This document shows positions 6,001-58,896 of a stretch of DNA of 64,000 bases, piece by piece. The translations under genes were made by a program, and so were the position numbers. Position 1 is the first letter of the stretch, and the number at the start of each line of letters is the position of its first letter. The stretch is from assembly GCA_040005235.1 (NCBI GenBank), contig JBDTZG010000009.1:1-64000 (forward strand). Direction: 5' to 3'. The notes under the pieces were generated by a model, which did not search any database, had not been told where the DNA came from, and worked only from the letters and a program-made list of their open reading frames with translations. This DNA is from Acidobacteriota bacterium. Lineage in GTDB: Bacteria; Acidobacteriota; Thermoanaerobaculia; Multivoradales; UBA5704.

Positions 6001-9000
6001 TCAGCAGGTAGGGCGCGGCGCTCTGTTCGAGGACTTGCCTCAGCCGGTGCGGAGGGTAGAGCGGGTCGAGCGGAACATAGGCCGCGTCGGCCTTGAACGC
6101 CGCGAGCATGGCGATGGCAAAGTCGAGCCCGCGATCCGCGAGCAGCGCGACCAGCCCGCCTGGAGCGAGCCCCTCCTCCGCGAGCTCGACCGCCAAGCCG
6201 TTGGCACGGCGATCGAGCTCGCCGTAGCTCAGGCAAACCTCGCCGCAGGTCACCGCGATCGCCTCGGGGATGTCGCCGGCCACGATCCGGAAGAGCTGGT
6301 GGAACGGGCGCTCGAAGGCCATCTCGGTCGGCGCTTGATCTCCTTCCGCAAGGATCTGCCGTCGTTCCTCGGCGTCCAGCAGAGGCAGCTCGGCCAGACG
6401 CCGATCGGGGCCGTCCGCGGCACTCGTGAGCAGGTTCACAAGATGGCGCGCCAGCCGCTCCGCGGTCGCCGGTTCGAACAGGGCGGTATTGAAATCCAAG
6501 GCCCCGCGTAAGGCGCCCCGTTCCTCGGCGATCAGCAGCTCCAGGTCGAACTTCACGTTCTGACCGGCAAAGCCCAAGGGCTCGATCTCCAGGCACGGCA
6601 GCTCAAGACCTCCCGGTTCGACGCTCTGAAACGAGAACATCACCTGAAACAGCGGCGAATAGGCGAGGCTGCGTTCCGGCTGCAGCTCGTCGACCAACTT
6701 CTCGAACGGCAGGTCCTGATGGGCGTAGGCACCGAGCAGCTCCTCGCGCGCCTGAGCGAGCAGCTGGCGGAACGAGGAGACCGTTCCCAATCGGCCGCGG
6801 AGCACCAGGGTATTGACGAAAAACCCGATCAGCCCCTCGGTCTCCAGCCGGTTGCGGCCGGCGATCGGCGAGCCCACCGCGATGTCGTCCTGGCGGGCGT
6901 AACGACCCAGGAGGGCCTGCAATCCTGCGAGCAGCGTCATGAACAACGTGGCGCCGTCACCCCGGCCGACCCCCACCAGGGCCGACGCCAGCTCGGCGGA
7001 AAACAGGATGGGACGTTGGCTCCCGCGGTAGGTCTGCACCGCCGGCCGTGGGTGGTCCGTCGGCAGCTCCAGAATCGCCGGGAGGCCCGCGAGGCGCTCT
7101 CGCCAGTAGCCGAGCTCGGCCGCGAGCACCTCGCCGGAGAGCCAATCCCTCTGCCAGACCGCAAAGTCGACGTACTGCACCGGCAGGTCGACCAGCGGCG
7201 AGGGCGAACCGGCTCGAACAGCCGCATACAGCGCGGAGGCTTCTTGCGCCAGGATGCCGAGCGACCAGGCGTCGCTCACGATGTGGTGAAAGCTCAAGAG
7301 CAGGGCGTGCTCGATCTCGTCGATCCGCAGCAGAAGGTTCCGCACCAGCGGTCCCGCCGAGAGATCGAACGGCCGCGCCGCCTCCTCGGCCGCCAGGCGG
7401 CGCGCGGTCTCCTCGCGCGACTCAGTCGGCAGGCGGCGGAGGTCGACCAGCGGCAGCCGCGGTCGCGGCGCGCCGAGGACCACCTGCGACGGCCGCCCGC
7501 CGGTCGCGGCGAACCTCGTGCGCAGGATCTCGTGGCGGCGCACGATTTCGGCGAGCGTCGCCGCGAGCGCCGCCCGGTTCAAAGGTCCTCGGAGCCGCAG
7601 CGCCAAGGGGTTGTTGTAAAACGCGCTGTCCGGCTCCAGCTGATGGAGGAACCAGAGCCGCTGCTGGGCAAACGAGAGGGGCAGGTCCCGGTCGCGCGCA
7701 ACCGGTACGACCGGCGGCGCCTGCAAACCCTCGCCCGCCCGCATCGACTGCTCGATCCGCGCGGCGAGCCCGGCTACGGTCGGCTCTTCGAACAGGGTGC
7801 GGAGCGGGATTTCGATCCGAAAGGCCTCCCGCACCCGCGACATCAGCTGCGTCGCCAACAGCGAGTGACCGCCCAGGTCGAAGAACCCCTGGTCCGTGCC
7901 GATCCGATCGAGGCCCAGAAGGTCGGCCCACAGGCCCGCCAAGACCTCCTCGAACGGGTTGCGCGGCGCCACCAGGCCGTCGATAGCCTGGCCGGAAACC
8001 TCCTCCGGTACGGGCAGCGCGGCGCGATCCACCTTGCCGTTTCGGTTCAGCGGGAAGCGGTCCAGGAGGACCACCACCGCGGGCACCATGTACTCCGGCA
8101 ACCGCTTGCGCAGCTGTTCGCGCAACTCGGCGGGGCTCGCTTGCGCCGGTCCGGATGTGAAGACCGGGAGCGGCGCGAGAGCGGGCGGGCTGGGCACGAA
8201 ACGGAGACCGGCTCGCCGCGCAAAGAGGTTGAAGCGATCGGTGCCGACCAGCAGCTCGTCCTGCTCGATCACCACCTCGAAGCCATGGCCTTCCAGCAGC
8301 CCGAGCAGGTCGCGGCAACGCCCCTCGCTCTCCGTGCCGGGAGCATCGTGGACCTCCATGACCACTTGGGCGACCTTGGCCCAATCCGCCGCGTCGAGGC
8401 CCGCCAGAACGTCCATCTCCGCCCTCTGAACGTCCACCTTGAGCAGGTCGATGCGCTCGACTCCCTCCTCCCGGATGACGTCCGACAGCCGGCGCAGCCG
8501 GCACTCTTCGACCTCGCTTTGGAAGCGGCCGGCCAGCAACTCGTCCGCCTCCGCCAAGAGGGCGGCGGCATCGCTCGATCCGCGCTCCTCCTCATTCCTC
8601 AAGAATCGTTTGACCACCTCGACTTCGTCTTCCGGAACCGCGTAACCGGCGAGTCCGGACATCATGGTGTACCGGGGGTAGTAGGTGAACTGCGCCGTCT
8701 GCTCTTTTTGCGCCAGACCGTGGCGAAAGAGGTGAACCTCCTCCGGACCGTACAGATTGGCGTTTCCTTCGAGAGCCGCAAAGATCGGGCCGATCGGCTC
8801 GAAGGCGTAGATTCGAGCGGTCGGGCAGCTTCTGGCAACGAATAGGGTGAACATGCCGATGTTCGCCCCGACATCGAACACGCAGGCGTTTTCCGGCAAC
8901 GCGATGCCGTGCTGGAAATAAGCCTCCTTGCGGAAGATCTCCTCGTACAGGTACTCGGTCTCGTTGCGGTTCTGGTGGAAGACGGCCATGCCGTTGGGGA

Positions 9001-11794
9001 GCAGATGGCGATGCGCCTCCGCCGGGCGGTCGCCCTCCCGGTGGGTCACGTAGGCGACCAGCCGCTTTTCTCCCGGCGGTTCGTCCCGCAGCACCACCAC
9101 CGCTTGACGGACGCCAGGACAGGCAGCGAGGGCCGCCTCGACCTCCCCCAGCTCGACCCGAAAACCGCGGATTTTCACCTGATGATCGACGCGGCCGAGA
9201 AACTCCAGGCCGCCGTCCGCCAGGTACCGGACCAGATCTCCGGTGCGGTACATTCGGGCTCCGGCGACTCCCGACCAGGGATCGGGCACGAACCGTTCCG
9301 CCGTCAGATCGGCCCGGCCGAGATAGCCTCGGGCCAGCCCCTCGCCGCCCACCCACAGCTCTCCGGCGGCGGTATCGAGAGCGAGAGAGCCGTCCGCCTC
9401 CACCACGTTTAAGCGGACATTGGGAATGGCACGCCCGATCGACGGACGAACCGCGTGCCAATCGACCCGGCCGACCGCCGCATCCACCGTGCATTCGGTC
9501 GGGCCGTAGACGTTCCAGAACGGCAACCCATCCACCCCCGCCAGCTCGGCCCACTGCGCCGGCTCGATCGCCTCGCCGCCGACCAGGAATCGACGCGGCA
9601 GCCGGTCCGCCCGCCTTTCAAACAGCCCCGCCGCCGCGAGCAGCCGAAGCTGCGAAGGCGTGCAGTCCAAGACGTCGAGCTGCTGCGCCAGGACGAACCG
9701 GAGCAGCTCTTCGCCATCCGGACGAATGTCGTCCGCCACCAGGCAAAGACCGTGACCGAACAGGAGCTGGACCCACTGTTTGACCGATGCGTCGAAGGTC
9801 AGCGGCGCGTTGACGCTCACCCGCAAGACCCGGCCGACGAGCTCGGCGTAGACCGTGTCTCGCAGCGCCCAGGCCAGATTCACCACCGACCGGTGCCGGA
9901 TCACCACCCCTTTGGGCCGGCCGGTCGAACCGGAGGTGAAGAGCACATAGGCAGCGTTGTCCGGCGACAGGCCGAGGATCAGGTTTGCAGAGGCCCGAGG
10001 CCCGAGCTGTGCGCCCGGCCTGAGCGCTTCCTCCAAGCTCAACACCCGCGCCGGGGTCGCCGGCAGGCGGTCGCGCAGACCCTCCTGGGCCAACAGCACC
10101 TTCATCCCCGCGTCCTGCACCATCGCCACCAGCCGCTCGCCGGGCTGGAGAGGATCGAGCGGCAGGTACGCCGCCCCCGCCTTGAGAATCCCGAGCAGTG
10201 CCACGATCTGATCGATCGAGCGTTCCATGCAGATCCCGACGAAAGACTCCGGGCCGATCCCTTGCTCGCGCAGGCAGTACGCCAAAAGGTTTGCCCGGTC
10301 GTTCAGCGTGCCGAAGCTCACGCAATCCGAGCCGAAACTCACCGCCAACGTATCGGGCGTGCGCTCGACCTGGCGTTCGAACAGAGCTTGGATGCTCTCC
10401 TCGCGGGGAAATTCCGCCGCCGTCGCGTTGCGCTCCACCAGGAGCAGGCGTCGCTCGGCCGCCGACATGATCGCGAGGTCCGCCACCGCTCGCCGGGGTG
10501 TTTCCAGCAGGCCCGCGATCAGGGTCTCATAGCGCTCCAGGAGCCTCTCGATCGTGGCTCGCGCGAACAGCTGCGGGGCGTAATGAAGCTCCAGATCCAA
10601 CCCGGAGGCGGACCGAGACACCGAGAGCCGGAGTTTGCAATAGCCGATGTTGACGAACCAGTGGCGCACCGAAAAGAGCACCGTTCCGGCCCTGCGCTCG
10701 CCCGTCCGTTGGGAGAAATCGAAGCCGATCGGAGCGGCAGCCCTGTCCGAGCCCGCGGTGCCCTCTTCCCAAGGGAAACACTCCTGCCAACCTTGGACCT
10801 CGGCGACGTGCCGCGCCACCCGTGCCGCAAAGCGGTCGAAGCCTTCCTCAGGGCGGATGCGCGTCGAGATCGGAAGGTAGCTGGCGAACATCCCCAGCCC
10901 CTGTTCCAGCTCCTCGAACTTACGGCCGTCGAAAAGGTTTTCGACCACCACATCGGTCCGGCGCGAAATGCGCGCCAACAGTGCCTGCCACGCGGCGAGC
11001 AGCCAGGAGGAGAGTGTCGACTCCGCCCGCTCGGCCTCGGAATCCAGGTCGCTCAAGGTCCGCGGCGGGAGATGCCGCGTCACAGATTCGACGGACAGAT
11101 CATCCAGCCGCAACTCCGCGGCATCCGGGGCATGGGCGACCTCCCCTTCCCCGGGGAGCACGATGGAAGCGTCCGTTGGTAGCGCCTGCTCACGCCAGAA
11201 CTGACGCCCCGCTTCGCTCTCCTCCAGGCTCCCCACTTCGTTCTGCCATTCCGAGAACTGGACGTACTGGACCGGCTCGTCCTCCGCCTCCTCGCCCGCT
11301 TCCGCAGCCGCCGCATAGGCCTGTGCGATCTCGTCCAACAGATTTTCAAGGCTCCGCGCATCGGAGCAGACCGCAGGCAGGCTCACCATCAGAGCCAGAC
11401 GATCGGCGGCGAGCAGGAAGAGCGTGAACCGGGCCAAAGGCGCGCGGTCGAAGTGGAACGGCAAGCACCCCTCGCGGCGAAAATGCGCTTCGATCTCGCG
11501 CCCTTGTTCTTCTTCGCCGTACGCCGTAAGGTCGATCTCCGGGCAATCGACGGCGACACTTTCGAGCACGACCTGCACGGGCAGGTCCATCCCGGGAAGA
11601 CTTTCGAAGAGGGTCCGCAAGATTTCGTGACGGCGAACGACCTTCCCCAGGGCCTCGCGCACCTCCCGCCGGCCCGGAGATCCGGACAGCAGGACCACGC
11701 ACTGCGCCCGGAACGCCAGACTGCGCCGCTGCCGGCCCCACAACAGTCTCTGTTGAGGCGACAGGCGAAACCCTTCGATGATTTCTCCCGGCAT
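1..11794 (-). CDS. NRPS, 3'-truncated, >3900 aa: I-A(Glu; FkbM-MT insert)-T-C-A(Dab)-T-C-A(unknown, Hpg-like code)-T-C...
   Basis: Hand translation from ATG 11794 (GGAG upstream) gives [19 protein letters not shown]...LPAVCSD (I domain). A codes read DAKDLGVVDK, DIWEITADDK and DIFHFGLIIK. The MT motif VFDVGANIG is near 8860-8885. GGHS T motifs lie near 7870, 4650 and 1475, and HHIVSD/HHIVGDG C motifs near 7280, 4060 and 885. Absence from the ORF track fits a frame open to the edge. Confidence 0.93.
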   Translation of the reverse strand, partial: MPGEIIEGFRLSPQQRLLWGRQRRSLAFRAQCVVLLSGSPGRREVREALGKVVRRHEILRTLFESLPGMDLPVQVVLESVAVDCPEIDLTAYGEEEQGREIEAHFRREGCLPFHFDRAPLARFTLFLLAADRLALMVSLPAVCSDARSLENLLDEIAQAYAAAAEAGEEAEDEPVQYVQFSEWQNEVGSLEESEAGRQFWREQALPTDASIVLPGEGEVAHAPDAAELRLDDLSVESVTRHLPPRTLSDLDSEAERAESTLSSWLLAAWQALLARISRRTDVVVENLFDGRKFEELEQGLGMFASYLPISTRIRPEEGFDRFAARVARHVAEVQGWQECFPWEEGTAGSDRAAAPIGFDFSQRTGERRAGTVLFSVRHWFVNIGYCKLRLSVSRSASGLDLELHYAPQLFARATIERLLERYETLIAGLLETPRRAVADLAIMSAAERRLLLVERNATAAEFPREESIQALFERQVERTPDTLAVSFGSDCVSFGTLNDRANLLAYCLREQGIGPESFVGICMERSIDQIVALLGILKAGAAYLPLDPLQPGERLVAMVQDAGMKVLLAQEGLRDRLPATPARVLSLEEALRPGAQLGPRASANLILGLSPDNAAYVLFTSGSTGRPKGVVIRHRSVVNLAWALRDTVYAELVGRVLRVSVNAPLTFDASVKQWVQLLFGHGLCLVADDIRPDGEELLRFVLAQQLDVLDCTPSQLRLLAAAGLFERRADRLPRRFLVGGEAIEPAQWAELAGVDGLPFWNVYGPTECTVDAAVGRVDWHAVRPSIGRAIPNVRLNVVEADGSLALDTAAGELWVGGEGLARGYLGRADLTAERFVPDPWSGVAGARMYRTGDLVRYLADGGLEFLGRVDHQVKIRGFRVELGEVEAALAACPGVRQAVVVLRDEPPGEKRLVAYVTHREGDRPAEAHRHLLPNGMAVFHQNRNETEYLYEEIFRKEAYFQHGIALPENACVFDVGANIGMFTLFVARSCPTARIYAFEPIGPIFAALEGNANLYGPEEVHLFRHGLAQKEQTAQFTYYPRYTMMSGLAGYAVPEDEVEVVKRFLRNEEERGSSDAAALLAEADELLAGRFQSEVEECRLRRLSDVIREEGVERIDLLKVDVQRAEMDVLAGLDAADWAKVAQVVMEVHDAPGTESEGRCRDLLGLLEGHGFEVVIEQDELLVGTDRFNLFARRAGLRFVPSPPALAPLPVFTSGPAQASPAELREQLRKRLPEYMVPAVVVLLDRFPLNRNGKVDRAALPVPEEVSGQAIDGLVAPRNPFEEVLAGLWADLLGLDRIGTDQGFFDLGGHSLLATQLMSRVREAFRIEIPLRTLFEEPTVAGLAARIEQSMRAGEGLQAPPVVPVARDRDLPLSFAQQRLWFLHQLEPDSAFYNNPLALRLRGPLNRAALAATLAEIVRRHEILRTRFAATGGRPSQVVLGAPRPRLPLVDLRRLPTESREETARRLAAEEAARPFDLSAGPLVRNLLLRIDEIEHALLLSFHHIVSDAWSLGILAQEASALYAAVRAGSPSPLVDLPVQYVDFAVWQRDWLSGEVLAAELGYWRERLAGLPAILELPTDHPRPAVQTYRGSQRPILFSAELASALVGVGRGDGATLFMTLLAGLQALLGRYARQDDIAVGSPIAGRNRLETEGLIGFFVNTLVLRGRLGTVSSFRQLLAQAREELLGAYAHQDLPFEKLVDELQPERSLAYSPLFQVMFSFQSVEPGGLELPCLEIEPLGFAGQNVKFDLELLIAEERGALRGALDFNTALFEPATAERLARHLVNLLTSAADGPDRRLAELPLLDAEERRQILAEGDQAPTEMAFERPFHQLFRIVAGDIPEAIAVTCGEVCLSYGELDRRANGLAVELAEEGLAPGGLVALLADRGLDFAIAMLAAFKADAAYVPLDPLYPPHRLRQVLEQSAAPYLLTASAYLGGADEAAQRLAKRPRILPLEALISRRPDEAPPAGEALPEQLAYVIFTSGSTGLPKGAMLHQRGMLNHLRAKVCDLDLRAADVVAQTATQTFDISVWQFLAVLLVGGRVEIFPAETAQDPARLLDGLMSTGVTILETVPSLLGYLLEEVATRGERPAIDALRWLIPTGEALLPDLCRRWLAAYPEIPLLNAYGPTECSDDVTHHTVALPPPAGEVRVPIGRPVLGTRLYVLDRPLGLVPPAVAGELFVGGAGVGRGYLGDPGRTAEVFFPDPFAVEPGARLYRTGDLVRRLPDGGLDFLGRIDRQVKIRGFRIELGEIEAVLATFPGAQEVAVLARADGGGELRLVAYVAPAAGASVAAEGLQAALRERLPEYMVPSSFVFLERFPLLASGKLDRHSLPAPDDSAVGRMASVAPRTPIEELLGMVWSDLLDRGPIGVHDNFFELGGHSLLATQVVSRIRKAFGVELPLRSVFEAATLSELAGRIEAARQAGNAPKHPPLRPAPRDRALPLSFAQQRLWFLDRLAPGGAAYNIPVALRLQGTLDIAALAGTLTAVVARHEALRTTFSLAATGSPVQVIHAAAPVALPVGDLSGLPATERARAVSFQVDREARLPFDLAQDSLVRTRLLRIDPATHILLFTMHHIVSDAWSIGVLVREVATSYGALSAGRLVPLPALEVQYADFAEWQRSWLHGPALEAELSFWRQALSDAPPLLELRTDRPRPTVRSGRGAIERFALPEATAAGLRRVGQEGGATLFMTLLGCYAVLLASHTGQQDLVIGTPIAGRNHGETEKLIGFFVNTLALRVNLESLANFSDLQARVRDVSLDAHEHQDLPFEKLVDELRPERSLGHDPLFQTLFAFERRERGQELRLAGLEIGVMTTESGSAKFDLALSLTESGDQLFGSFQYSTDLFDATTIRRFSSHLTRLLAGIAVDSQGPLAAFPMLGEGERHQLVFEWRGRVPEPEGESDPARLFAIQAERTPGGIALVCGETEVSYDDLDLRANRLAQALRRIGAGPDVTVALRLERTPDLVAAILAVLKAGAAYLPLDPALPDERTRLLLRDSRARILVTEERLGEIAGHPLITLALDRDRDAIERESGDSPVSGVRAHHPAYLIYTSGSTGTPKAVVVERGNLASVLLASRETFGWRAEDRMPCLAPFSFDIFLFELFGPLLSGGTSVLFPLRPTLDLIDLAERLGEMTALHAVPALLRQVVDEARRRGDAHPGLRIVFVGGDAVPADLLADLPAVFPCAQIHVLYGPTEATIICSSHPVPAGASRPLLGRPLAGAELELRDTSGNLVPIGVVGEIWIGGPGVSRGYLGREDLTREKFVAVDGERFYRSGDLAVRLPDGQLEFLGRADQQVKVRGFRIELGEIEATLASHPRVSQALVLAQDDRAGTRRLVAWFAAVGADAGLAAELREEARRRLPEYMVPSVFVAMEALPLTVHGKVDRRALPDPEAGRVDLRADFEAPRSPVEELIAAVWCELLGLERVGRRDRFFELGGHSLLAMQMVSRLRQPLEVEIPLRDLFEAPALAAFAARVEDALQSGAERLAPPLVPMLRQGPLPLSFAQQRLWFLDRLAPGNPYYNLPIALRVEGPLRADVLARSLSEIVRRHEALRTLFEVREHSPVQVIRAAEPFALAVVDLSGLPKAAREGLALLLAGQEAVRPFDLARGPLLRGVLVASARDDHAVVLSLHHIVGDGWSMGILVREVTALYSAFADGLPSPLPELAVQYADFSTWQHAWLRGALLESEIAFWRRQLEGLPPRLELPTDRPRPPVQTFRGAARPMRLSADLTDRIKVLSRREGSTLFMLLLAGFQALLARYSGQDDLAIGVPVAGRNRLEIEGLIGFFVNTLVMRGDLTGGPSFRELLCRVRETALAAHLHQDVPFERLVQELAPERNLASTPLFQVVFVLGNAPAQALEIPDLRIRPMGTAETTAKFDLTMSLEEWSGGIAGAVKHSTDLFDGATVDRLIGHFERLLGAAVTAPDQPA

Positions 11795-11835
11795 TTACCG
11801 CTCCCCTCGGTGATGCTGCTAAGGATCCCCGCGAC

Positions 11836-20740: not shown

Positions 20741-20744
20741 CTCG

Positions 20745-27206
<6,462 letters not shown>

Positions 27207-27223
27207 GCCGTCTCTCGCGACCG

Positions 27224-36954: not shown

Positions 36955-39900
36955 TGTTCGGGTTCCTCTCGACCGGCCGGCCGTGCCTCCACGGCGGGAG
37001 TCGCGCGCTTGGGTTTAAATCGATCCATCTTTTCCGCTTCCCGCCGCTTCTCCTCGGCCCCCTGCTCGGCGCGCTCGGCGGCGGTCCGCGTTTCGAGCGA
37101 GGAGAGCCGGGCGTCGGGCCGCTCTACGGCGTCACTAAGTAGTGCCTCGAACCGCCGTTCGAGCGACTCGATCGAAGCGAGATCGAAAAGCTCCGACCGC
37201 CAGGTCCAATCGAGGGTCAAGCCGAGATCGGCCTCACGGACCCAGACGGTGAGGTCGAAGCGCGCCGTCTCGGGCTCCGGCTCCAGCATCGTCAACCGCA
37301 GGCCGGGGAGCGCCAGGTCCTCCAGCGGCACGTTGTTCAAGCTGAACGCGATCCGCAGGAAAGGTGTCTGCAGCAGCTCCCGCCCCGGCCGCAGCTCTTG
37401 CACCAGCAGGTCGAAAGGGAGTTCTTGATGAGCGTAGGCGCCGAGCGCCGTGGTCCGAGCCCGGGCGAGCAGCTCGCGAAATTTCGGGTTTCCCGACAGA
37501 TCGGTGCGCATCGCCAACAGATTGACGAAGAAGCCGATCAAACCTTCCGTCTCCAGCCGATCGCGCCCGGCCGTTGCGGTTCCCACCACGACGTCCTCCA
37601 CCCCGGTCAGACGAGACAGAAGCGCCTGAAACCCCGCGAGGAGCGTCATGAACAGGGTGACGCCCTCGGTCCGGCTCAGGTCGCGGAGCCGGGCGGCGAG
37701 ATCCTCCGGCAGGACGAACGATCGACGCACCCCAACCTTCTCCGGCGTCTCCGTCGTCTCCGTCGGCCGCGGAAGGACCGCCGCCAGATCGATCACCGGC
37801 GGATCTCCCGCCAGCTGCTGTTTCCAGTAGAGCAGCTGGGCGGAGAGGGCCGCTCCCTGCAGCCATTCGCGCTGCCACGATGCGTAGTCCGCGTATTGGA
37901 TCGGAGGCTCTCCCAGCGGCGAGGGCAGCCCTTGGGAGAACGCCTCGTACAGGGCGGCCACCTCGCGGATGAAGACCCCGCTCGACCAGGCGTCGGTGAC
38001 GATGTGATGCAGGGTGAAGAGCAGCACGTGCTCTTGCCCGCCGAGGCGCAGCAGGCGGCATCTGAGCAACGGCCCGCGGCTCAGGTCGAAGATCCGCCGC
38101 GCCCCGTCGTCGAACGAGCGCCGCACTTCGCTCTCGCCTGAGCCGGCAGGAAGACTCGCGAGATCGACCACCGGCACGCACAGCGCCGCTGCAGGGGCGA
38201 TCCGCTGCACCGGCCTGCCGTCGATCTCCGGGAAACGGGTGCGCAGCACCTCGTGCCTTCGCACGACCTCACCGAGCGTTCGTGCCACCACCGGGAGGTC
38301 GAGGCGGCCGACCAGACGCAGGGCGCTCGGCGAGTTGTAGGCGGCCGAAGGATCGAGCCGGTCCACCAGCCAGAGGCGTTGCTGGGCGAACGAGAGCGGG
38401 AGATCTCGATCCCGCGCCGCGGGACGGATGGGAGGAGCCTCGGCCACCGCGGCGGCGATCCGCGACTCCAGATGGCTCGCGAGCTTGGCCACCGTCGGGT
38501 GATCCAGGAGGTCGCCGGGCATCAGCTCCGATCCGAGAGCCTTGCGGATGCGGGCGACCAGGCGCACCGCATGCATCGAGTGCCCGCCCAGCTCGAAGAA
38601 GTTGTCGTCGATGCCGATCTCCGGACGCTTCAACAAATCGCGCCATAGGCCGACCAGGGTCCGCTCCAGATCGGTTCGCGGCTCGGCCACCCCTGCCGCT
38701 TCGACCGCTTCGACCGCTCCGACGCCAACTGCGGCGGACGTCCAAGACTTGAGGATCTTGCGATCGACCTTGCCGTTTGCCGTGAGCGGCAGAGACTCGA
38801 CCCCGACGACGCTCGAAGGGACCATGTGCTCCGGCAGATCGAGACGGAGGAAGTCGCGGAGCTTCCCCGGCAACGCTTCAAGGTCGATCCCCGGCCGGGC
38901 GACGACGAAAGCCGCGAGGCTGGCATCGGCCCCTTCGTCGCGCACCACGACCGCCACCTCCAGAAGCGCCGGGTGGCGAACCAGTACCGCTTCGATCTCC
39001 CCCAGCTCGATCCGGAACCCTCGAACCTTCACCTGGGTATCGAAACGTCCGAGAAAATCCAACACGCCGTCCGGCCGACGGCGCGCCAGGTCTCCGGTCC
39101 GGTACAACCGCGCTCCGGGCTGCCGACCGTGAGGGTGAGGAACGAAGGCGGCGGCGGTCAAAGCCGGCCGCCCGAGATAGCCGCGGGCGAGACCCTCGCC
39201 GCCGACCGCAAGCTCGCCGGCGATACCCACCGGGGCTAGACCTCCGCCGGGCTCCAGCACGTACAGCTCGGTCCGGTCGATCGGACGGCCGATCGGTACC
39301 GGACCCGCCAGTGCATCGTCCCCCGGGATCTCATGGACCGCACAGCCGACCACCGTCTCGGTGGGACCGTATTCGTTGATCAGGCGGGTCTCCGGCGCGT
39401 CGCGTCGCCATTCCGCGAGGCTGCCTCCGTGCAGCGCCTCGCCGCCGACGATCAGCACGCGCGTGGCGCCGGCCCGTTCGTCACCCCCGAGCTGTTGCCG
39501 GAGCACGTCCAAGTGGGCCGGGGTGAGCTTGACCAGGCCGAAGTCGGGTTTGCCAAGGAAGACCTTCGCCAGCTCGCCGCCGACGGGTGATCCGGCGAGC
39601 AGCGTGACCGGCCGGCCGGCGAGCAGCGGCAAAAGAAGGCTGGTGAGCGTGAGATCGAAACCGATCGGCGAATAGGCCGGAGCGCCGGCACCTTCCGCCG
39701 CCCGGTAGGCTTCGCCCGCCCAGCGCAGATAGTTGTCGAGGCCGCGCCGGGGGATCATCACCCCCTTCGGCCGCCCGGTCGATCCGGAGGTGTAGAGGAC
39801 GTACGCGAGATGCTCGCCCGCGTCGGCAGCGTCCACCCGTTCGGCAGCCACGGGCAAGCCGGCGATCCGGTCCCAATCCGCATCGAGGCACAACAGCTGT

Positions 39901-42900
39901 GGAGCGGTCGTGCCCCCCTGCGGCAGTCGGCTCGCGAGCCGTTCGTTGGTCAACAGCCAGGCGGCGCCGCTGTCCGTGATCATGTAGGCCAGCCGTTCGG
40001 CGGGGTAGTCCGGTTCGAGCGGCACGAACGAGGCTCCCGCTCCGAGGATGCCGAAGAGCGCGACGAGCAGCTCCGGCGTCCGTTCGAAGAAGACACCGAC
40101 CCTCGCCTCGGGACCGACGCCCTGGGCTCGCAGGTAAGAGGCCAGGCGCACGGCGCGAGAGTGAAGCTCGGCGAACGACATCCGCCGATTCTCGAAAATG
40201 AGGGCGACCGCCGCGGGATCGGCGGCGGCCACGGCGCTCAGCCGCGCGAGCAGGGTGCCCGCGGTCGCCGGGCCGGGACGCGAGGTGTCGTTCCACTCCG
40301 ATCGCAGCTGGTGCAGCTCGGCTCCCCGCGCCAGAGGCAGCTCCGAAATCCGCCGGCCGGGGTCGGCGCCGATCTGCCGGAGAAGGTTTCCGAAGTGCGT
40401 CAACAGGCGCAGGATCGTGGTCCGGTCGAACAGATCGGTGGCGTATTCGAGCGCACACGTCAAGGCGCCGTACGAGTCCTCGACCAGTGCCAGGTGCAGG
40501 TCGAATTTGGCCGTCCCGGTCGCAACCTCGATCGGCTCCAGGGTCAGACCCGGAAGCTGAATCGCGAAAGCCGGCACGTTTTGCAGCGCCAGCCAGGCGC
40601 TGAACAGGGGCGACGGGCTTGCCACGCCCTCCGGCTGCAGCTCCTCCACCAGCTTTTCAAACGGCAGGTCCGGATGGGCATACGCCGCCAATGCCGCCTC
40701 GCGTGTCCGCCGCAGCTGCTCATGGAAGCTGGGGTTCCCGACAAGGTCGGCCCGAAACACCAGGGTATTGACGAAGAATCCGATCAGCGGCTCGATCTCG
40801 GGCCGGTTGCGGCCGGCGATCGGCGAACCGACCGTCAAATCCTCCTGCCCGGTGTAACGGTAGAGCAGAGTCTGGAAGCCGGCGAGCAGAACCATGAACA
40901 GGGTTGCCCGGTCCGCGCGGGTGAGCGCATATAGAGCCGCCACCGCCGCGGGCTCCAACCGGGCGACTTCGGTCGCGCCGCGCATCGTTCGGCCCGGCGG
41001 GCGCGGCCGGTCGATCGGCAGGTCGAGGGTCGATCGAGCCCCGGCCAGCCGGGAGCGCCAGAACCCGAGCATCGCTTCGAGGTTCTCGCCCGCGAGGCCG
41101 CGCCGCTGCCAGACCGCAAAGTCCGGATATTGAATCGGCAGATCGGGAAGGCGCGGCTTGGCGCCCGCCGCCAGGGCGCTGTAGATCTCGCCCAGCTCCC
41201 GGATCAGAATGCCGAACGACCACCCGTCGCTCACGATGTGGTGCATCGACGCCGAGAGGACATGCTCGCGTTCGCCGAGGCGAAGCAGCGAGAGCCGCAG
41301 CAGCGGCCCCTGGCGCAGGTCGAAGCTCCAACTGCTCGCCTCGGTCCACCGGCGAGCCCCCTCCCGCTCCCTTTCGCGCCGCGCCAGGCGGGCCAGGTCG
41401 ATCAGCGGCAACGCCATCGGCGCGGCCTGCTCGACCACCTGGATCGGCGTCTCGCGCCCCGCGTGGAACGTGGTGCGCAGCGATTCGTGGCGGGCGACGA
41501 TCGCGGTGAAGCTGTCGCGCAGCGCGGCGACGTTCAACGCTCCCGTCAACCGGAACGCCCCGGGGATGACATAAGCCAGGTTGCCCGGGTCCATCTGGTC
41601 GAGCAGCCAGAGCCGCTGCTGCGGAAACGACAGCGGCAGCTCACCGTCCCTCGGGCTCGCGACCAACGGCGGCAGCGGCAGGCCCTCCTGCACCCGCATC
41701 TCGTGCTCGACCCGCTGCGCGGTTTCGGCGATCGTCGGGCTTTCGAACAGCGTGCGCAGCGGCAGATCGACTCGAAACGTCTCCCGCAGCCGCGAGATCA
41801 CCTGGGTGAGGAGCAGCGAGTGCCCCCCCAGGAGGAAGAAGTTGCCATCCACCCGGATCCGCTCCAGGCCCAGAACCTCGCACCAGATGCCGGCGACTAG
41901 CTCTTCGACCGGCGTATAGGGCCGGTCGAAGCTCTCTTCGTCCGGCGGCGCGGCGTCCGGTTCCGGTAGGGCGGAGCGGTCGATCTTGCCGCTCGCGGTG
42001 CGCGGCAGAGCGTCGAGGAGCACGAAGGTGGAAGGAATCATCGGTGCCGGCAGCTTCTTGTCGAGAAATCCGCGTAGCGTCGTCGGGGTGGCCTCGCGCC
42101 GTTCCAGCAACCCGTTCTCGGCCGTTCGTCTGCCCGCGCGCCGTTCGAACCAGGCGGGGCGAACGGCGTAGACGTTGAACAGGCCGGCCCCCCGGAACCG
42201 GGCGTCCTCCTCGGCCACCACCGTGTAGCCCTGGTCCCGCAGCAGGGTCTCGACCGCCTCCAGCCGGCCGTCGGCCGCGTGCAGCTCGACGACGATCTGG
42301 CCGATCTTCGGCCAGTCCTCGGCGCGGATGCCGCAAAGAACGTCCAGCTCGCTTTTTTCGACGTCGATCTTGAGCAGGTCGATGCGGGCCAGCCCCTCCT
42401 CGACGAGGACGTCCGAGACGGTGCGCAGCGGGACCGAGAAGCTCTCGGCTTCGAACCGTCCGCTCAGCAGCTCGTCGGCATAGCGGGCGAGGTCGGCATC
42501 CTGGCTTTCCAGCGAGGCGCGCGCCACCCTCTCGTCCTCGGCCAGGTCGGCATACAGCCCGGACATCGCCGACCAGCGCGGATAGAAGGTGAAGACCGCT
42601 TCCCTCGGCGCGTCGGCCAGGCCGCAGTTGAACAGCTTGGCCTCCAGGCCGTACAAGCCGACGTTGCTCTCCAGGCGTTTGAAGACCGCGGGCACCGGCT
42701 CGAACGCGAACACCTTCGGGTTCTTGGCGCGCTGGTGCGCAAAAAGGGTGAACAGGCCGATGTTGGCTCCGACGTCGAACACGCAGTCGCCGTCGGCGAG
42801 ATTCACGCCGTGCCGCAGATAGACCTCGTCTTCGAAGATCTCCCGGAAGATGAGCACGGCTTCGTTGCGGTTGAGGTGGGCGATCTCCATGCCGTTCGGC

Positions 42901-45650
42901 AGAAGGAGCAGCTCGCCGGCCTCCGAGCCGAGGTCGCGGCGGGTGGCGACGTAGGCCACCAGACGAGGGTTTCCGGCCTCGCCGCGAAGGGCGACCACGG
43001 CGTCCCGGACGCCGGGATGAAGACGTAGCGCCGCCTCGATCTCTCCCAGCTCGATCCGGAAACCGCGCACCTTCACCTGATGGTCGATGCGCCCCAGGTA
43101 CTCGACAGCTCCGTCGAGCCTCCGGCGGGCGAGGTCACCGGTCCGGTAGAGACGCTCCCCCGGCCGCTCCGCGAGGGGGTCGGGAACGAAGCGCTCGGCG
43201 GTCAGGTCGGGGCGTCCCAGGTAGCCGCGCGCCAGCCCGATGCCGGCGATCGCCACCTCGCCCGCCGCTCCGGCCGGGACCGGCCACAGCCCGGCGTCGT
43301 ACAGCGACACCCTGACGTTGTCGATCGGCCGGCCGATCGGCACCGGGCTCTCGCCGCTCTCCCGCCGAAGCGGCCAAAAGCTGGCGTCGATCGAGCTTTC
43401 GGTCGGTCCGTAGAGGTTGCACAAGGCGACGCCGGTGAGGAGCTCGAAGAACCGGTCCCGAAGATCGGCCGGCAGCGCCTCGCCACCGCAGTAGACCCGG
43501 CGCAGCGCGCTCAAGCTTGAGAGCCCCGGCTCTTCGAGAATCACCCGCAGCTGCGAGGGCACCCATTGCAGGACGGTGATCTCCTGCTCGGCGATCGCGC
43601 GGATCAGATAGGAGTTGTCTCGTTGGCCGTCGGGGCGGGCCAGGAACAGCCCGGCACCGGTCGCGAGCGGCAGAAAGATCTCCCAGATCGAGGCATCGAA
43701 AGTGAACGTCGTCTTCTGCAGAACCCGATCGTCCGCGGCGAGCGGGAAACGCCTCTGCATCCACAGCAGCCGATTGACGATCGCGGCGTGCGCGACCGCC
43801 ACCCCTTTGGGCCGCCCGGAAGAGCCCGAGGTATAGATGACATAGGCCAGATTCGCGGGATCGACGGCCCCGTTCCGGCCGCTCCGGCCACTTCGGCCGC
43901 CTCCTTGCGACAGGTCCACTCGATCGAGGTCGAGCACCTCGTTTCCGGCCCGGACCGAGAGTCGTGCCAGCCATTCCGAGCGGGTCAAGACGAGGCGAGG
44001 ATCGGCATCCTGCACCAGTTGGGCGAGACGCTCCTCGGGATGGCTTGGATCGAGGGGCAGATAAGCCGCCCCCGCACGCAGCGTACCGAGCAGCGCCACC
44101 ACCATCTCAAGCCCGCGCTCCAGGCAGATGCCGACCAACGTGTCCGGTCCGGCTCCGCGCGACCGCAGGATCTCGGCCAGGCGGACCGTCCGTCGATCCA
44201 GCTCGGCGTAGGTCAGGCTCGCTCCGTCGGCCTCCACCGCGATGCGCTCAGGGGTCCGCTCGGCCTGGGCGGCAAACAGCCCCGGCAGAGTCTCCGCCGA
44301 GGGCTCGACCGAAGTGTCGTTCAGCTCCCGGACCAGGCGGTGCCGCTCCACTTCGCCGACCAGGGCGAGATCGCCGATCAGAGCGCCGGGCGCGGCGGCA
44401 ACGCTGATCAGAAGGGCTTCGAGCTGCAGCGCCCAACGCCGAACTTCGACGAGCGAGAAGACCGCGGCATCGAAAGCGAAGCGGAGCGCCAGGGAGTCGC
44501 CGCCAGCCCGGCACGAGAGCTTGAGGCGGAACGGTTCGCTCCACGCCTGGCGGGCGACCACCGTGAACGTGACTCCAGAAACTTCCTCCGCAGGCCCGAA
44601 CGGCTTCTCCATCTCAAAGCCGTAGGTCTGAACGAGCTCCTGCGGGTTCTCGTCGCGCGCCGCGAGGGCCTGCCAATCGAGAAACCGTTGCATCTCGAAG
44701 GCGACGCCAAGGGTTCGCCGAACCTGCCGCAAAACACTCTGCAAGGTGCCGGAGCTTTCCAGCCGCCAGGCCAGGGGCAGGAACCGCACCAGAGGTCCCA
44801 CCGTGGCGGCCAGCTCCTGGTAGTCGCGACCGTCGAAGGCCACCCCCACCGACAGATCCTGCCGATCGACCAGGCGGCCCAGGAAGACGACCCAGCAGGC
44901 CAGGAGCAGATCGGACAGCTCCGCCCCTTCCGCCTGCGCGATCGAGCGCAGCTTCGCGAGCGCCGGAGCCCCGAGCGCAAAGTCGAACTCCTGCGGCAGG
45001 AAGCGGCCTTTCCCCGCCTCGGCCCCGGGAGGAAACGGCGCCTCGATCACCGACGTCCGTTCGAACCAATATCCCCGTTCCGCGAGGGTCTCTTCCCCTT
45101 CGAGCAGGCTGTTCTGCCAGGTCGAAAGATCAGCGTACTGGACCGGCGGCTCCGCCTCCGGATCGAGCGCGCCCGCCCCACGATACGAACCGACGATCTC
45201 CCGCACCAGGTTGTCCAGGCCCGCCAGGTCCGAGCAGAGCGCCGGCAAGGCGAGCCGGAGCAGGCGCTCCCCAGGCTCCACTCCGATCGACGAGACCCGT
45301 AGGACCGGGCCGTCCTCCAGGTCGAACGGCAGCGCCTCCTGCGTCCGGAGCCACTCAGCGAGCTTCGCGCTCCGCTCCTGCGGCGTCCGATCCGCCCGGG
45401 GCTCGGTCACGACCTGGAGCGGCCAGGACATCCCGGGCAGCGAGCGGAAGACCGTGCGCAAGATCTCGTGCCGTTCGACGGTGCTCTGGATCGCCGCCGC
45501 GAGCCGTTCCTCGTCGAGCGCTCCCGCGACGCGAACCAAGACCTGCGCGCTCCCCAACCCTGCGCGCCAAGCCCAGGCCCTCGCCTGCTGAGGCGAGAGG
45601 GAAAAGCCGTGCAAGGTCGGCTGCATTGCGGTTTCGATCTCTGTGATCAT
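36951..45650 (-). CDS. NRPS: I-A(Gln-like; FkbM-MT insert)-T-C-A(Asn)-T-C(terminal)
   Basis: 2899 aa. GFSLSPQQARAW and LPALCSD mark the I domain. A codes DAWQYGLIDK and DLTKIGEVGK. MT motifs VFDVGANIG and [12 protein letters not shown]. The final C has HHIVTDA. Confidence 0.96.
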   Translation of the reverse strand: MITEIETAMQPTLHGFSLSPQQARAWAWRAGLGSAQVLVRVAGALDEERLAAAIQSTVERHEILRTVFRSLPGMSWPLQVVTEPRADRTPQERSAKLAEWLRTQEALPFDLEDGPVLRVSSIGVEPGERLLRLALPALCSDLAGLDNLVREIVGSYRGAGALDPEAEPPVQYADLSTWQNSLLEGEETLAERGYWFERTSVIEAPFPPGAEAGKGRFLPQEFDFALGAPALAKLRSIAQAEGAELSDLLLACWVVFLGRLVDRQDLSVGVAFDGRDYQELAATVGPLVRFLPLAWRLESSGTLQSVLRQVRRTLGVAFEMQRFLDWQALAARDENPQELVQTYGFEMEKPFGPAEEVSGVTFTVVARQAWSEPFRLKLSCRAGGDSLALRFAFDAAVFSLVEVRRWALQLEALLISVAAAPGALIGDLALVGEVERHRLVRELNDTSVEPSAETLPGLFAAQAERTPERIAVEADGASLTYAELDRRTVRLAEILRSRGAGPDTLVGICLERGLEMVVALLGTLRAGAAYLPLDPSHPEERLAQLVQDADPRLVLTRSEWLARLSVRAGNEVLDLDRVDLSQGGGRSGRSGRNGAVDPANLAYVIYTSGSSGRPKGVAVAHAAIVNRLLWMQRRFPLAADDRVLQKTTFTFDASIWEIFLPLATGAGLFLARPDGQRDNSYLIRAIAEQEITVLQWVPSQLRVILEEPGLSSLSALRRVYCGGEALPADLRDRFFELLTGVALCNLYGPTESSIDASFWPLRRESGESPVPIGRPIDNVRVSLYDAGLWPVPAGAAGEVAIAGIGLARGYLGRPDLTAERFVPDPLAERPGERLYRTGDLARRRLDGAVEYLGRIDHQVKVRGFRIELGEIEAALRLHPGVRDAVVALRGEAGNPRLVAYVATRRDLGSEAGELLLLPNGMEIAHLNRNEAVLIFREIFEDEVYLRHGVNLADGDCVFDVGANIGLFTLFAHQRAKNPKVFAFEPVPAVFKRLESNVGLYGLEAKLFNCGLADAPREAVFTFYPRWSAMSGLYADLAEDERVARASLESQDADLARYADELLSGRFEAESFSVPLRTVSDVLVEEGLARIDLLKIDVEKSELDVLCGIRAEDWPKIGQIVVELHAADGRLEAVETLLRDQGYTVVAEEDARFRGAGLFNVYAVRPAWFERRAGRRTAENGLLERREATPTTLRGFLDKKLPAPMIPSTFVLLDALPRTASGKIDRSALPEPDAAPPDEESFDRPYTPVEELVAGIWCEVLGLERIRVDGNFFLLGGHSLLLTQVISRLRETFRVDLPLRTLFESPTIAETAQRVEHEMRVQEGLPLPPLVASPRDGELPLSFPQQRLWLLDQMDPGNLAYVIPGAFRLTGALNVAALRDSFTAIVARHESLRTTFHAGRETPIQVVEQAAPMALPLIDLARLARREREREGARRWTEASSWSFDLRQGPLLRLSLLRLGEREHVLSASMHHIVSDGWSFGILIRELGEIYSALAAGAKPRLPDLPIQYPDFAVWQRRGLAGENLEAMLGFWRSRLAGARSTLDLPIDRPRPPGRTMRGATEVARLEPAAVAALYALTRADRATLFMVLLAGFQTLLYRYTGQEDLTVGSPIAGRNRPEIEPLIGFFVNTLVFRADLVGNPSFHEQLRRTREAALAAYAHPDLPFEKLVEELQPEGVASPSPLFSAWLALQNVPAFAIQLPGLTLEPIEVATGTAKFDLHLALVEDSYGALTCALEYATDLFDRTTILRLLTHFGNLLRQIGADPGRRISELPLARGAELHQLRSEWNDTSRPGPATAGTLLARLSAVAAADPAAVALIFENRRMSFAELHSRAVRLASYLRAQGVGPEARVGVFFERTPELLVALFGILGAGASFVPLEPDYPAERLAYMITDSGAAWLLTNERLASRLPQGGTTAPQLLCLDADWDRIAGLPVAAERVDAADAGEHLAYVLYTSGSTGRPKGVMIPRRGLDNYLRWAGEAYRAAEGAGAPAYSPIGFDLTLTSLLLPLLAGRPVTLLAGSPVGGELAKVFLGKPDFGLVKLTPAHLDVLRQQLGGDERAGATRVLIVGGEALHGGSLAEWRRDAPETRLINEYGPTETVVGCAVHEIPGDDALAGPVPIGRPIDRTELYVLEPGGGLAPVGIAGELAVGGEGLARGYLGRPALTAAAFVPHPHGRQPGARLYRTGDLARRRPDGVLDFLGRFDTQVKVRGFRIELGEIEAVLVRHPALLEVAVVVRDEGADASLAAFVVARPGIDLEALPGKLRDFLRLDLPEHMVPSSVVGVESLPLTANGKVDRKILKSWTSAAVGVGAVEAVEAAGVAEPRTDLERTLVGLWRDLLKRPEIGIDDNFFELGGHSMHAVRLVARIRKALGSELMPGDLLDHPTVAKLASHLESRIAAAVAEAPPIRPAARDRDLPLSFAQQRLWLVDRLDPSAAYNSPSALRLVGRLDLPVVARTLGEVVRRHEVLRTRFPEIDGRPVQRIAPAAALCVPVVDLASLPAGSGESEVRRSFDDGARRIFDLSRGPLLRCRLLRLGGQEHVLLFTLHHIVTDAWSSGVFIREVAALYEAFSQGLPSPLGEPPIQYADYASWQREWLQGAALSAQLLYWKQQLAGDPPVIDLAAVLPRPTETTETPEKVGVRRSFVLPEDLAARLRDLSRTEGVTLFMTLLAGFQALLSRLTGVEDVVVGTATAGRDRLETEGLIGFFVNLLAMRTDLSGNPKFRELLARARTTALGAYAHQELPFDLLVQELRPGRELLQTPFLRIAFSLNNVPLEDLALPGLRLTMLEPEPETARFDLTVWVREADLGLTLDWTWRSELFDLASIESLERRFEALLSDAVERPDARLSSLETRTAAERAEQGAEEKRREAEKMDRFKPKRATPAVEARPAGREEPEQ

Positions 45651-45656
45651 CGTCCT

Positions 45657-58896
<13,240 letters not shown>

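Follow-up and report, generated by a model that had tools for sequence, protein, structure and literature searches.

Organization of the NRPS Locus

The DNA analyzed here (the window) is a stretch of 64,000 nucleotides, the first 64 kb of contig JBDTZG010000009.1 (C91) in the 6.2-Mb genome of an Acidobacteriota bacterium, and it encodes part of a lipopeptide nonribosomal peptide synthetase (NRPS) of at least 14 modules that is primed by a fatty-acyl-AMP-ligase-like (FAAL-like) domain. Along this line one tailoring cassette recurs three times. In each copy a canonical condensation (C) domain ends one protein and the next protein opens with a C-family domain classed below as an interface-type (I) domain, followed by an adenylation (A) domain interrupted by an FkbM-type methyltransferase (MT), a thiolation (T) domain and a further C domain, written as I-A(MT)-T-C. 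Six NRPS genes and two small genes, TauD1 and TauD2, form one operon on the minus strand. The domain order was derived from motifs, Pfam and profiles built from the window, and the Pfam scan of gene A covered its first 1336 residues. In transcriptional order the genes are as follows, where ACP stands for acyl carrier protein and E for an epimerization domain:

45657-58907, minus strand: gene A, FAAL-like-ACP-C-A-T-C-A-T-C-A-T-C
36951-45650, minus strand: gene B, I-A(MT)-T-C-A-T-C
35911-36954, minus strand: TauD1, PF02668 (E 9.6e-47)
27224-35914, minus strand: gene C, I-A(MT)-T-C-A-T-E
20745-27428, minus strand: gene D, C-A-T-C-A-T
12869-20740, minus strand: gene E, C-A-T-C-A-T-C
11836-12876, minus strand: TauD2, PF02668 (E 6.8e-49)
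2-11794, minus strand: gene F, running off the contig start, I-A(MT)-T-C-A-T-C-A-T-C...

Gene F is cut at the contig start, and the end of the assembly line, with further modules and a release domain, therefore lies outside the window. Within the window there are 14 A domains for amino acids in addition to the FAAL-like domain. By coordinates, the TauD genes overlap the flanking NRPS genes by 4-8 bases, and TauD1 shares bases with gene B at its end and with gene C at its start. By Stachelhaus code tables, the residue order would presumably be acyl-Ala-Thr-Ser-Gln(m)-Asn-Glu(m)-D-Asp-(Phe-like)-X-Gln-(Dab-like)-Glu(m)-(Dab-like)-X..., where Dab is diaminobutyrate and (m) marks the residues loaded by the three cassettes.

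Interface-Type Domains at the Start of Three NRPS Proteins

The genes starting at 45650, 35914 and 11794 open with a full-length Condensation-family domain of 442-461 residues in which the HHxxxDG position holds LPA[LV]C[AS]D. These domains, and the canonical C domains that precede them on the neighboring proteins, are:

44301..45650, minus strand: I domain of gene B, LPALCSD at residue 135 (PF00668, E 2.4e-46)
34580..35914, minus strand: I domain of gene C, LPALCAD at residue 133 (PF00668, E 3.4e-45)
10412..11782, minus strand: I domain of gene F, LPAVCSD at residue 139 (PF00668, E 3.1e-53)
45819..47117, minus strand: canonical C domain ending gene A, HHIISDA (649 bits with the C profile vs. 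164 with the I profile)
37089..38408, minus strand: canonical C domain ending gene B, upstream of cassette 2, HHIVTDA
12992..14302, minus strand: canonical C domain ending gene E, upstream of cassette 3, HHVAADE

Each preceding protein terminates in a canonical C domain and each T domain is followed by another one, so that the start domain is an extra domain and not a replacement; the terminal C domain of gene A presumably condenses onto cassette 1. A 39-row alignment of domains without the HH motif gave the consensus LPALCAD, with the Asp invariant at the former HHxxxDG position. The gene B start domain scored 727 bits with the I profile, which was built from the three window start domains themselves, and 149 bits with the C profile. 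Against the Protein Data Bank (PDB) the start domain resembled a diverged ordinary C domain, with Txo1 as its closest match (5.4e-30), and a search of the ESM Atlas with the I domain returned generic condensation clusters only. The three C domains that precede the start domains carry HHxxxDA or HHxxxDE, not HHxxxDG, and group together with one foreign domain (support 90); this altered motif may reflect adaptation to a modified acceptor residue.

The interface domain class was reportedly defined by Reitz et al. in 2019, together with a stand-alone Asp beta-hydroxylase in siderophore NRPSs. In plasmid records the closest matches of the start domain were cyanobacterial NRPSs, and in tblastn the gene C domain matched the N-terminal part of BAU16061, which is encoded on Leptolyngbya sp. 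NIES-3755 plasmid 2 (E 6e-49; 32.5% identity, with 98% of the query aligned). BAU16061 is preceded by a TauD/TfdA protein, BAU16062, and the NRPS ahead of BAU16062 ends in a C domain. According to passages of PMC12628792, BAU16061 is CcsL, the Asp module of cyanochelin B, which is served by the stand-alone Asp beta-hydroxylase CcsK; the passages of that source on CcsL and CcsK do not use the term 'interface domain.' The N-terminal domain of CcsL carries LPSLCAD and scored 342 bits with the I profile vs. 136 with the C profile. A tree built from 52 C-family domains placed those of the window in a set of 22 rows (support 97), made up of the three start domains, CcsL and 18 domains without HH from other genomes; this set was separate from the LCL-type rows (support 99) and the DCL-type rows (support 100). 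Because of the CcsL motif, the profile scores and the shared clade, we assign the start domains, by sequence, to the interface-type domains that accompany stand-alone hydroxylases.

A complex prediction for the gene C I domain (39-row alignment) with TauD1 (18-row alignment) scored 0.41, against 0.01 for the best control, and at least 87% of the contacts agreed between runs, with partner pLDDT (predicted local distance difference test) values of at least 84. Of 80 solved complexes, 58 reached the mark used for such predictions, as did 2 of 110 mismatched pairs; those reaching it with scores of 0.60 or below were just 7 of the solved complexes together with both passing mismatches. The prediction slightly raises the odds that the I domain binds a TauD protein, and shows nothing when taken alone.

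FkbM Inserts in the Cassette A Domains

The A domain that follows each I domain is interrupted, and the features concerned are:

41946..44288, minus strand: A domain of cassette 1 (gene B), code DAWQYGLID, interrupted between A8 and A10; T serine motif GGHSL at residue 1275
42069..42974, minus strand: FkbM insert of cassette 1, PF05050 74.4 bits (cut-off 22.7), TIGR01444 100.2 bits
32165..34567, minus strand: A domain of cassette 2 (gene C), code DAKDLGVVD; T motif at residue 1292
32285-33247, minus strand: FkbM insert of cassette 2, TIGR01444 102.3 bits
8000..10402, minus strand: A domain of cassette 3 (gene F), code DAKDLGVVD; T motif at residue 1308
8117-9073, minus strand: FkbM insert of cassette 3, TIGR01444 101.9 bits

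All three inserts, of about 290 residues, thus scored well above the cut-off of TIGR01444 (FkbM family, 37.7 bits), matched PF05050 in the genome scan and kept the S-adenosylmethionine motif DVGANIG. The spacing from A8 to A10 was 360, 380 and 378 residues in the cassettes vs. 79-90 in nine other A domains; for the remaining two, the spacing from A8 to the T motif was 137 and 139 residues, vs. 415-436 in the cassettes. The A10 and T motifs are present after each insert and both halves of the A domain are intact. The insert occurs in 3 of the 14 A domains, each behind an I domain, and is missing from the other 11; random placing of three inserts among 14 A domains would hit exactly these three once in 364 trials by our own arithmetic. 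We regard the co-occurrence of insert and I domain in the window as real and far from chance.

The gene C and gene F inserts are 71% identical and fall among MTs of Glu-type cassettes, and the gene B insert, 43% identical to them, falls among those of Gln-type cassettes. The PF05050 scan of the genome gave seven matches, the four beyond the inserts lying in frames of 281-445 residues, and it found no NRPS-embedded FkbM insert elsewhere in the genome. In the PDB, only the flanking A-domain stubs were matched and the MT insert had no sequence relative. With Stachelhaus positions read from alignments, an uninterrupted module of gene E had the code DAWQFGLID; by the Stachelhaus tables, we take DAWQYGLID to be Gln-like, DAKDLGVVD to be Glu-like and DAWQFGLID to stand for Gln. 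The JGI record of one relative (P0109) names an L-glutamate ligase.

An earlier interpretation of the window made from its letters alone (the sequence-only reading) had described a C-like domain with LPAxCxD at the start of three NRPS genes, a true C domain at the end of each previous NRPS, an FkbM insert in the three following A domains and in none of the other 11, and two interleaved TauD genes. The motifs, the PF00668 and PF02668 matches, the A8-A10 spacing and the TIGR01444 scores agree with each part of this description, and the placement of the start domains beside CcsL bears out its view that they are interface domains.

The function of the insert can be approached through its family. 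Passages of PMC9259500 report FkbM matches in 37 clusters of MIBiG (Supplementary Table 5 of that source) and count 29 FkbM-family proteins documented as O-methyltransferases in MIBiG biosynthetic gene clusters, the evidence being experimental for 4 and an inference of the authors for 25; the only N-methyltransferase of the family reported there is EreM. Two relatives of the insert on Streptomyces plasmids (L089, NZ_CP109227.1; L090, NZ_CP107991.1; 43-47% identity) have operon neighbors encoding a HAD-IIIC phosphatase, a carrier protein, an acyl-CoA dehydrogenase and a 3-hydroxyacyl-CoA dehydrogenase. We take this gene set to be methoxymalonyl-ACP-like, in which case the expected reaction is O-methylation of a carrier-bound hydroxyl; an FkbM-type enzyme (818 residues in L089) would replace the usual O-methyltransferase of such a set. 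A further relative (L087, NZ_CP106952.1, 692564-693370, 46% identity) lies on a 784-kb plasmid of Eleftheria terrae, the teixobactin producer, as an internal FkbM-type insert in a 17-kb NRPS gene.

Occurrence of the Cassette in Other Genomes

A protein search with the MT part of gene C as query (E <= 1e-5; 5092 candidates of 1592-5068 residues) matched at least 1275 proteins (clusters) in one length band. In the best 118 of these proteins from outside the window, 132 A domains carried a first MT; 102 were preceded by an I-like domain, 18 by a canonical C domain, and 12 were truncated. An I-like domain was therefore present ahead of 102 of the 120 evaluable inserts, and in 102/102 cases it stood at the protein N-terminus. 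Many matches consisted of a single I-A(MT)-T-C unit of about 1810-1840 residues, and among the 132 cassettes 26 had a second, tandem MT and 4 proteins had a fused TauD domain. The tandem-MT subgroup comprises proteins P0004-P0030 and loci L025, L026, L027, L030 and L035, and the second MTs form a clade of their own (support 100). TauD domains fused to the C-terminus of an NRPS, either the cassette's own protein or the upstream one, were seen in L039, L020, L024, L031, L042 and L077 and in P0020, P0021, P0074 and P0112.

Relatives are encoded at no fewer than 401 loci of species-representative genomes, and the counts that follow rest on the best 80 of them. Most of these came from metagenome-assembled genomes of Acidobacteriota, others from Sorangium, Kofleriaceae, Cyanobacteria, Binatia, Gemmatimonadota and Limisphaerales; Pseudomonas was absent from the best 80. 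The 14 control genomes gave PF05050 matches in four, none of them Pseudomonas. In the class of the window itself the insert is patchy, matching in 6 of the 151 genomes searched, its own included. The cassettes in 79 loci were 46 of the I type, 14 of the type behind a canonical C domain (C type) and 28 truncated. Where a substrate code could be read, the I-type cassettes (n = 42) were Glu-like in 23 cases, Asp in 8, Gln in 7, Asn in 1 and other in 3, and the C-type modules (n = 14) were Thr in 4, Ser in 4, Asp in 4, Asn in 1 and other in 1; no recognized hydrophobic code was found among these 56 coded FkbM A domains, 5 codes of which are unassigned. This pattern fits side-chain modification and is best matched by a single chemistry, O-methylation of a hydroxyl, which would be native in Ser and Thr and installed by a hydroxylase in Asp, Asn, Glu and Gln. 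Double-MT cassettes were Glu-coded in all four coded cases, and tandem MTs in one A domain would fit dimethoxy-Glu.

One cultivable strain, Sorangium cellulosum So ce26, has a locus with three Glu-like cassettes and with one T1-like and one T2-like TauD (these clades are described below; L110-L114, NZ_CP012673.1, at about 5.06-5.12 Mb). Its order is an NRPS primed by a FAAL domain and ending in C; I-A(MT)-T-C; the T1-like TauD; I-A(MT)-T-C with five further modules; the T2-like TauD; and I-A(MT)-T-C-A-T-C-A-T-TE, where TE is a thioesterase. The 13 A domains have mostly Ser-, Gly- and Glu-like codes, and all three cassettes being Glu-like, both TauD clades must serve Glu cassettes there. Orthology of the two clusters was rejected; the cassette layout is the same but the A-domain codes differ. 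We know of no product for the So ce26 cluster.

Two Clades of TauD Hydroxylases

TauD1 and TauD2 are 46% identical. Both keep the metal triad, as H125, E127 and H319 in TauD1 (invariant in the 18-row alignment) and with HHE and SHGR visible in TauD2. The two proteins fall into different clades: T1, with TauD1, held 21-23 rows (support 95-96), and T2, with TauD2, held 16-17 rows (support 97-100). In the 23-row version, T1 comprised TauD1 along with 10 proteins of Glu-like loci, 4 of Asp loci, 3 of Gln loci and those of other loci, and T1 enzymes occur with Glu, Gln, Asp and Asn cassettes. The 17-row T2 clade comprised TauD2, 14 proteins from Glu-like loci, one from a locus without a determined code and one from a locus with another code, and contained none from Asp, Gln or Asn loci. 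Both enzymes can stand in front of one module: the gene order T1-T2-cassette was seen with a single visible Glu cassette in L008, L010, L024 and L028, and in L042 the two are fused in one frame of 697 residues. The Gln loci with a visible hydroxylase (L062, L065 and L068) had T1-like enzymes only. CcsK was 47% identical to both TauD1 and TauD2.

Since T1 and T2 are different paralogues and T2 is found with Glu-like cassettes and not with Asp, Gln or Asn cassettes, double hydroxylation with one O-methylation is at least as likely on Glu as simple beta-methoxylation. The clade pattern, the gene orders, the So ce26 locus and the codes of the double-MT cassettes are what would be expected if Glu received two hydroxyls and Gln, Asp or Asn a single one.

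Comparison With Known Systems

An A domain interrupted by a methyltransferase is found in KtzH of kutzneride biosynthesis, where, as in the window, the MT lies between A8 and A9/A10 and, as proposed for the window, acts on the residue loaded by the same module; the window insert differs in belonging to the FkbM family and in being coupled to an I domain and to hydroxylases acting in trans. Interrupted A domains with embedded methyltransferases were reportedly the subject of Labby et al. in 2015. The routes to 3-methoxy-Asp/Asn in A54145 and cystobactamid proceed by TauD-type hydroxylation of a carrier-bound residue and then O-methylation by a separate protein, whereas in the window the A domain itself contains the MT and is accompanied by an I domain. 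With CcsK/CcsL the cassettes share a module protein that opens with a histidine-less C-family domain, a directly upstream TauD gene and a previous NRPS ending in C. CcsL, in contrast, loads Asp, has no MT insert and belongs to an iron chelator; the window has Glu and Gln as substrates, a second hydroxylase clade and the embedded FkbM domain.

The closest layout is that of the AMB (methoxyvinylglycine) toxin pathway of Pseudomonas aeruginosa, as described in passages of PMC4357302, PMC8968710, PMC10880069 and PMC10510592. There AmbB is A-T-C and AmbE is Q-A-MT-T1-C-T2-TE, Q being a 461-residue N-terminal stretch of unexplained function (the T1 and T2 of AmbE are thiolation domains). The AmbE A domain loads Glu; AmbC and AmbD hydroxylate this Glu on T1 at C3 and C4, respectively, giving 3,4-dihydroxy-Glu, whose 4-OH is methylated by the MT to yield 3-hydroxy-4-methoxy-Glu; and the AmbB C domain then condenses. 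At the end of that pathway an unusual C domain dehydrates, decarboxylation gives the enol ether, and Ala-AMB is released. How AmbC and AmbD are recruited is stated as an open question in passages of PMC8968710. In layout, the window matches this system by an upstream NRPS ending in C, followed by a non-catalytic N-terminal domain of about 460 residues and A(Glu)-MT-T, and by two TauD-type oxygenases with an in-cis MT before condensation, an arrangement demonstrated for AMB and proposed here for the window. The sizes agree as well, the HHxxxDG motif of AmbE lying at residues 1496-1502 and the HH motif downstream of the window cassettes at residues 1470, 1491 and 1503, against 1173 in CcsL, which has no MT.

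The second half of AmbE is different. It has the dehydrating C domain, T2 and TE, whereas the C domains that follow the window cassettes are ordinary; all three lie inside the LCL clade, and the one examined against the PDB was:

30515..31897, minus strand: LCL-like C domain after cassette 2, with Txo1 (2.2e-99) as its closest PDB match

For this domain the AmbE dehydrating C domain (7r9x) scored 1.7e-20 and ranked 38 of 48. Since the post-cassette C domains are ordinary and not dehydrating, the modified residues should be kept in the peptide and no vinylglycine is expected. The window cassette is also repeated, with three copies, one of them Gln-coded, in a lipopeptide line at least 14 modules long, and its start domain is recognizable as an interface domain. 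With no dehydrating C domain followed by T2-TE, the window does not encode an AMB pathway, even though the first half would operate in the manner of one.

Literature searches on interrupted adenylation, or on adenylation-domain O-methylation, with FkbM did not return this architecture, and a search joining interface domain, TauD-type hydroxylase and nonribosomal synthesis gave no match. For FkbM together with AmbE no paper on topic was found, judged mostly by title, one match being the tool name AMBER. A search on methoxy-Glu/Gln residues was swamped by glucosinolate (methoxyglucobrassicin) papers, and one match to methoxyglutam- among those listed concerned AMB.

Proposed Mechanism and Alternatives

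We propose that the A domain of each cassette would charge its own T domain, with Gln in cassette 1 and with Glu in cassettes 2 and 3, that the histidine-less N-terminal I domain would hold a stand-alone TauD Fe(II)/2-oxoglutarate hydroxylase against the T-bound amino acid, that the FkbM MT between A8 and A10 would O-methylate a new hydroxyl in cis, and that the upstream C domain would then condense onto the modified residue. TauD1 would be a general hydroxylase, probably acting at C3 (beta) and serving all three cassettes, and TauD2 would be specific for the Glu cassettes, probably acting at C4 by analogy with AmbD. Methylation of a hydroxyl is the best-supported role for the insert, judged from the FkbM family record, the substrate codes and the AMB precedent. 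The analysis directly shows the domains in their order, the families to which they belong, intact metal and S-adenosylmethionine motifs, the co-occurrence counts and the two TauD clades; I-TauD binding, O-methylation in preference to N- or carboxyl-methylation, the regiochemistry, the order of steps and the action of both TauDs on the same Glu residue are what we infer. Given that T2 enzymes occur only beside Glu-like cassettes and T1 enzymes also with Gln, Asp and Asn, the predicted residues are beta-methoxy-Gln once (+30 Da) and hydroxy-methoxy-Glu twice (+46 Da, most likely as 3-hydroxy-4-methoxy-Glu), kept in the peptide, and on balance we favor this outcome.

For the sequence-only reading this means that its interpretation was right in kind. 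The portable unit that it suspected recurs in the best proteins and at the at least 401 loci described above, and hydroxylation on the T domain followed by O-methylation in cis is the chemistry best supported by the family record, the codes, the co-occurrence and the clades. Its beta-methoxy-Gln is also our prediction; its beta-methoxy-Glu, expected twice, fits less well with two TauD paralogues of which the T2 clade occurs only beside Glu-like cassettes, and it probably understates the Glu chemistry. It probably also overstated the novelty in suggesting that the embedded form on five-carbon residues may be undescribed, since a cluster with this architecture, Q-A(Glu)-MT-T1 with AmbC and AmbD, is described at the level of layout in the AMB passages cited above; a characterized cluster of such architecture was among the findings that the sequence-only reading had itself named as refuting it.

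Several observations weigh against this mechanism. CcsK, the sole hydroxylase in the comparison with a known product, falls outside the supported T1 and T2 clades, and for this reason the assignment of T1 to C3 rests on its association with Asp and Asn cassettes. Our trees were quick or FastTree builds in which kin are not independent. The genome encodes a third T1-like TauD outside the window (contig C56, 165363-166619; L115/L116), with 54% identity to TauD1; the surrounding 35 kb that were examined gave no NRPS domain. The likeness to AmbE, AmbC and AmbD is one of published layout and size, NCBIfam gave no model specific to Amb proteins, and the C domains show no special kinship with the amb genes: against the pre-cassette C domain, that of AmbB ranked 30 of 44 and that of AmbE 36 of 44, and against the post-cassette one AmbB ranked 35 of 48. 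A TauD gene lay within 10 kb of 25/40 loci with I-type cassettes only, vs. 0/12 loci with C-type modules only (Fisher p 1.1e-4), which speaks for a link between I domain and TauD; the contrast is nevertheless confounded and inflated because C-type modules lie deep in giant open reading frames whose 10-kb flanks are mostly NRPS. The chemistry, from O-methylation through regiochemistry to I-TauD binding, is deduced throughout, and for the binding step the complex prediction adds weak support.

The alternative nearest to the proposed mechanism is that each cassette undergoes a single beta-hydroxylation and methylation, giving beta-methoxy-Gln once and beta-methoxy-Glu twice, with TauD1 and TauD2 dividing the cassettes between them, for instance T1 for Gln and T2 for Glu. 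In its favor, the window has three cassettes and two TauDs, pairs of I domain and stand-alone hydroxylase are known from the beta-hydroxylation of Asp, T1-like enzymes are the only ones with the Gln cassettes of L062, L065 and L068, and some Glu loci (L014, L018, L034 and L044) show only one TauD, T2-like, within 10 kb. However, L018 and L044 have a second TauD about 20 kb away (that of So ce26 is classed as T1-like; that of the Kofleriaceae locus merely scores higher with a T1-built profile), and a division by substrate does not account for the tandem T1-T2 pairs directly upstream of one visible Glu cassette, the fusion in L042, or So ce26, which has both clades and Glu-like cassettes only. 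The Glu codes of all four coded double-MT cassettes and the AMB precedent, with both hydroxylases acting on one Glu, point the same way, and we consider single hydroxylation rather unlikely. A different possibility is that the MT does not act on a TauD-made hydroxyl at all and instead forms a Glu gamma-methyl ester or methylates the backbone N or a carbon, any hydroxylation being independent. EreM is a backbone N-methyltransferase of the FkbM family (passages of PMC9259500), and 5 of the 14 FkbM modules behind a canonical C domain are coded for Asp or Asn with no TauD in view, which weighs against the proposed mechanism and leaves open carboxyl methylation or a distant hydroxylase. Yet Gln, Asn, Ser and Thr cassettes offer no side-chain carboxylate, the lack of recognized hydrophobic codes is unlike known backbone N-methylation domains, and the tight association of I domain and MT would go unexplained if the two modifications were independent. 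The AmbE MT acts on the 4-OH in the AMB passages, and the Streptomyces homologues lie in operons for which we presume O-methylation, so that we hold this alternative to be improbable.

The two remaining alternatives are less probable still. The histidine-less domain might be an inert relic or an inter-protein docking element, the TauDs reaching the T domain without it; the complex prediction is weak, and all 102 I-like domains sit at the N-terminus, where docking with an upstream C-terminal C domain is needed as well. Against this, the domain is full length, forms its own clade across phyla with the invariant Asp at the former HHxxxDG position, co-occurs with TauD genes, and is absent from the Ser- and Thr-coded FkbM modules, which need no hydroxylase; a relic or docking element therefore seems to us a poor prospect. 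The layout of the first half of the AMB pathway, matched here in the N-terminal domain, A(Glu)-MT-T, two TauDs and an upstream protein ending in C, could also suggest that the cassettes make AMB-like methoxyvinylglycine enol ethers in the peptide by dehydration and decarboxylation of hydroxy-methoxy-Glu. With ordinary C domains as the closest kin of the one that follows cassette 2 and the dehydrating domain of AmbE ranked far lower, with all three post-cassette C domains in the LCL clade, and with no carboxylate to lose on the Gln of cassette 1, enol ethers are hardly to be expected.

Significance

If the proposed mechanism is true, it would link two separately described phenomena, the interface domains of siderophore NRPSs and the glutamate-tailoring module of AmbE, and would offer a testable answer to the question of AmbC and AmbD recruitment. 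It predicts hydroxy-methoxy-Glu, methoxy-Gln and, in relatives, dimethoxy-Glu, with mass shifts of +46, +30 and +60 Da; to our knowledge none of the three has come from a peptide natural product. The unit is widespread in little-studied, uncultured soil phyla and would be an entry point for genome mining and engineering, with the So ce26 strain as a cultivable bacterium that shares the layout of three cassettes and two hydroxylases. The number of hydroxylase clades and of MT domains seems to predict the product. Tentatively, and with less confidence than we have in the residues of the window, we suggest that the cassette with its T1 and T2 enzymes may be a large uncharacterized combinatorial oxygenation-methylation toolkit of Acidobacteriota, Myxococcota, Cyanobacteria and others, in which one or two hydroxylase clades and one or two MTs would encode methoxy, hydroxy-methoxy or dimethoxy groups on Asp, Asn, Gln and Glu; the AmbE Q stretch might then be an interface domain, which would explain the recruitment of AmbC and AmbD, and the products might form a new family of lipopeptides with methoxylated acidic residues.

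Neighboring Genes and Other Domains

A gene for an ATP-binding cassette (ABC) transporter with membrane and ATPase domains (58897-60579) overlaps the start of gene A and probably encodes an exporter. Upstream of it, a 493-residue frame (60911-62392) matched nothing in Pfam or NCBIfam; since long frames on both strands overlap it, it is perhaps not a true gene. Within the assembly line, the N-terminal C domains of genes D (20745-27428) and E (12869-20740) group with DCL-type domains (support 100). Gene C ends in an E domain, and gene D ends in a T domain with the motif GGDS and no E domain, and the first C domain of gene E may therefore be of the dual, epimerizing type.

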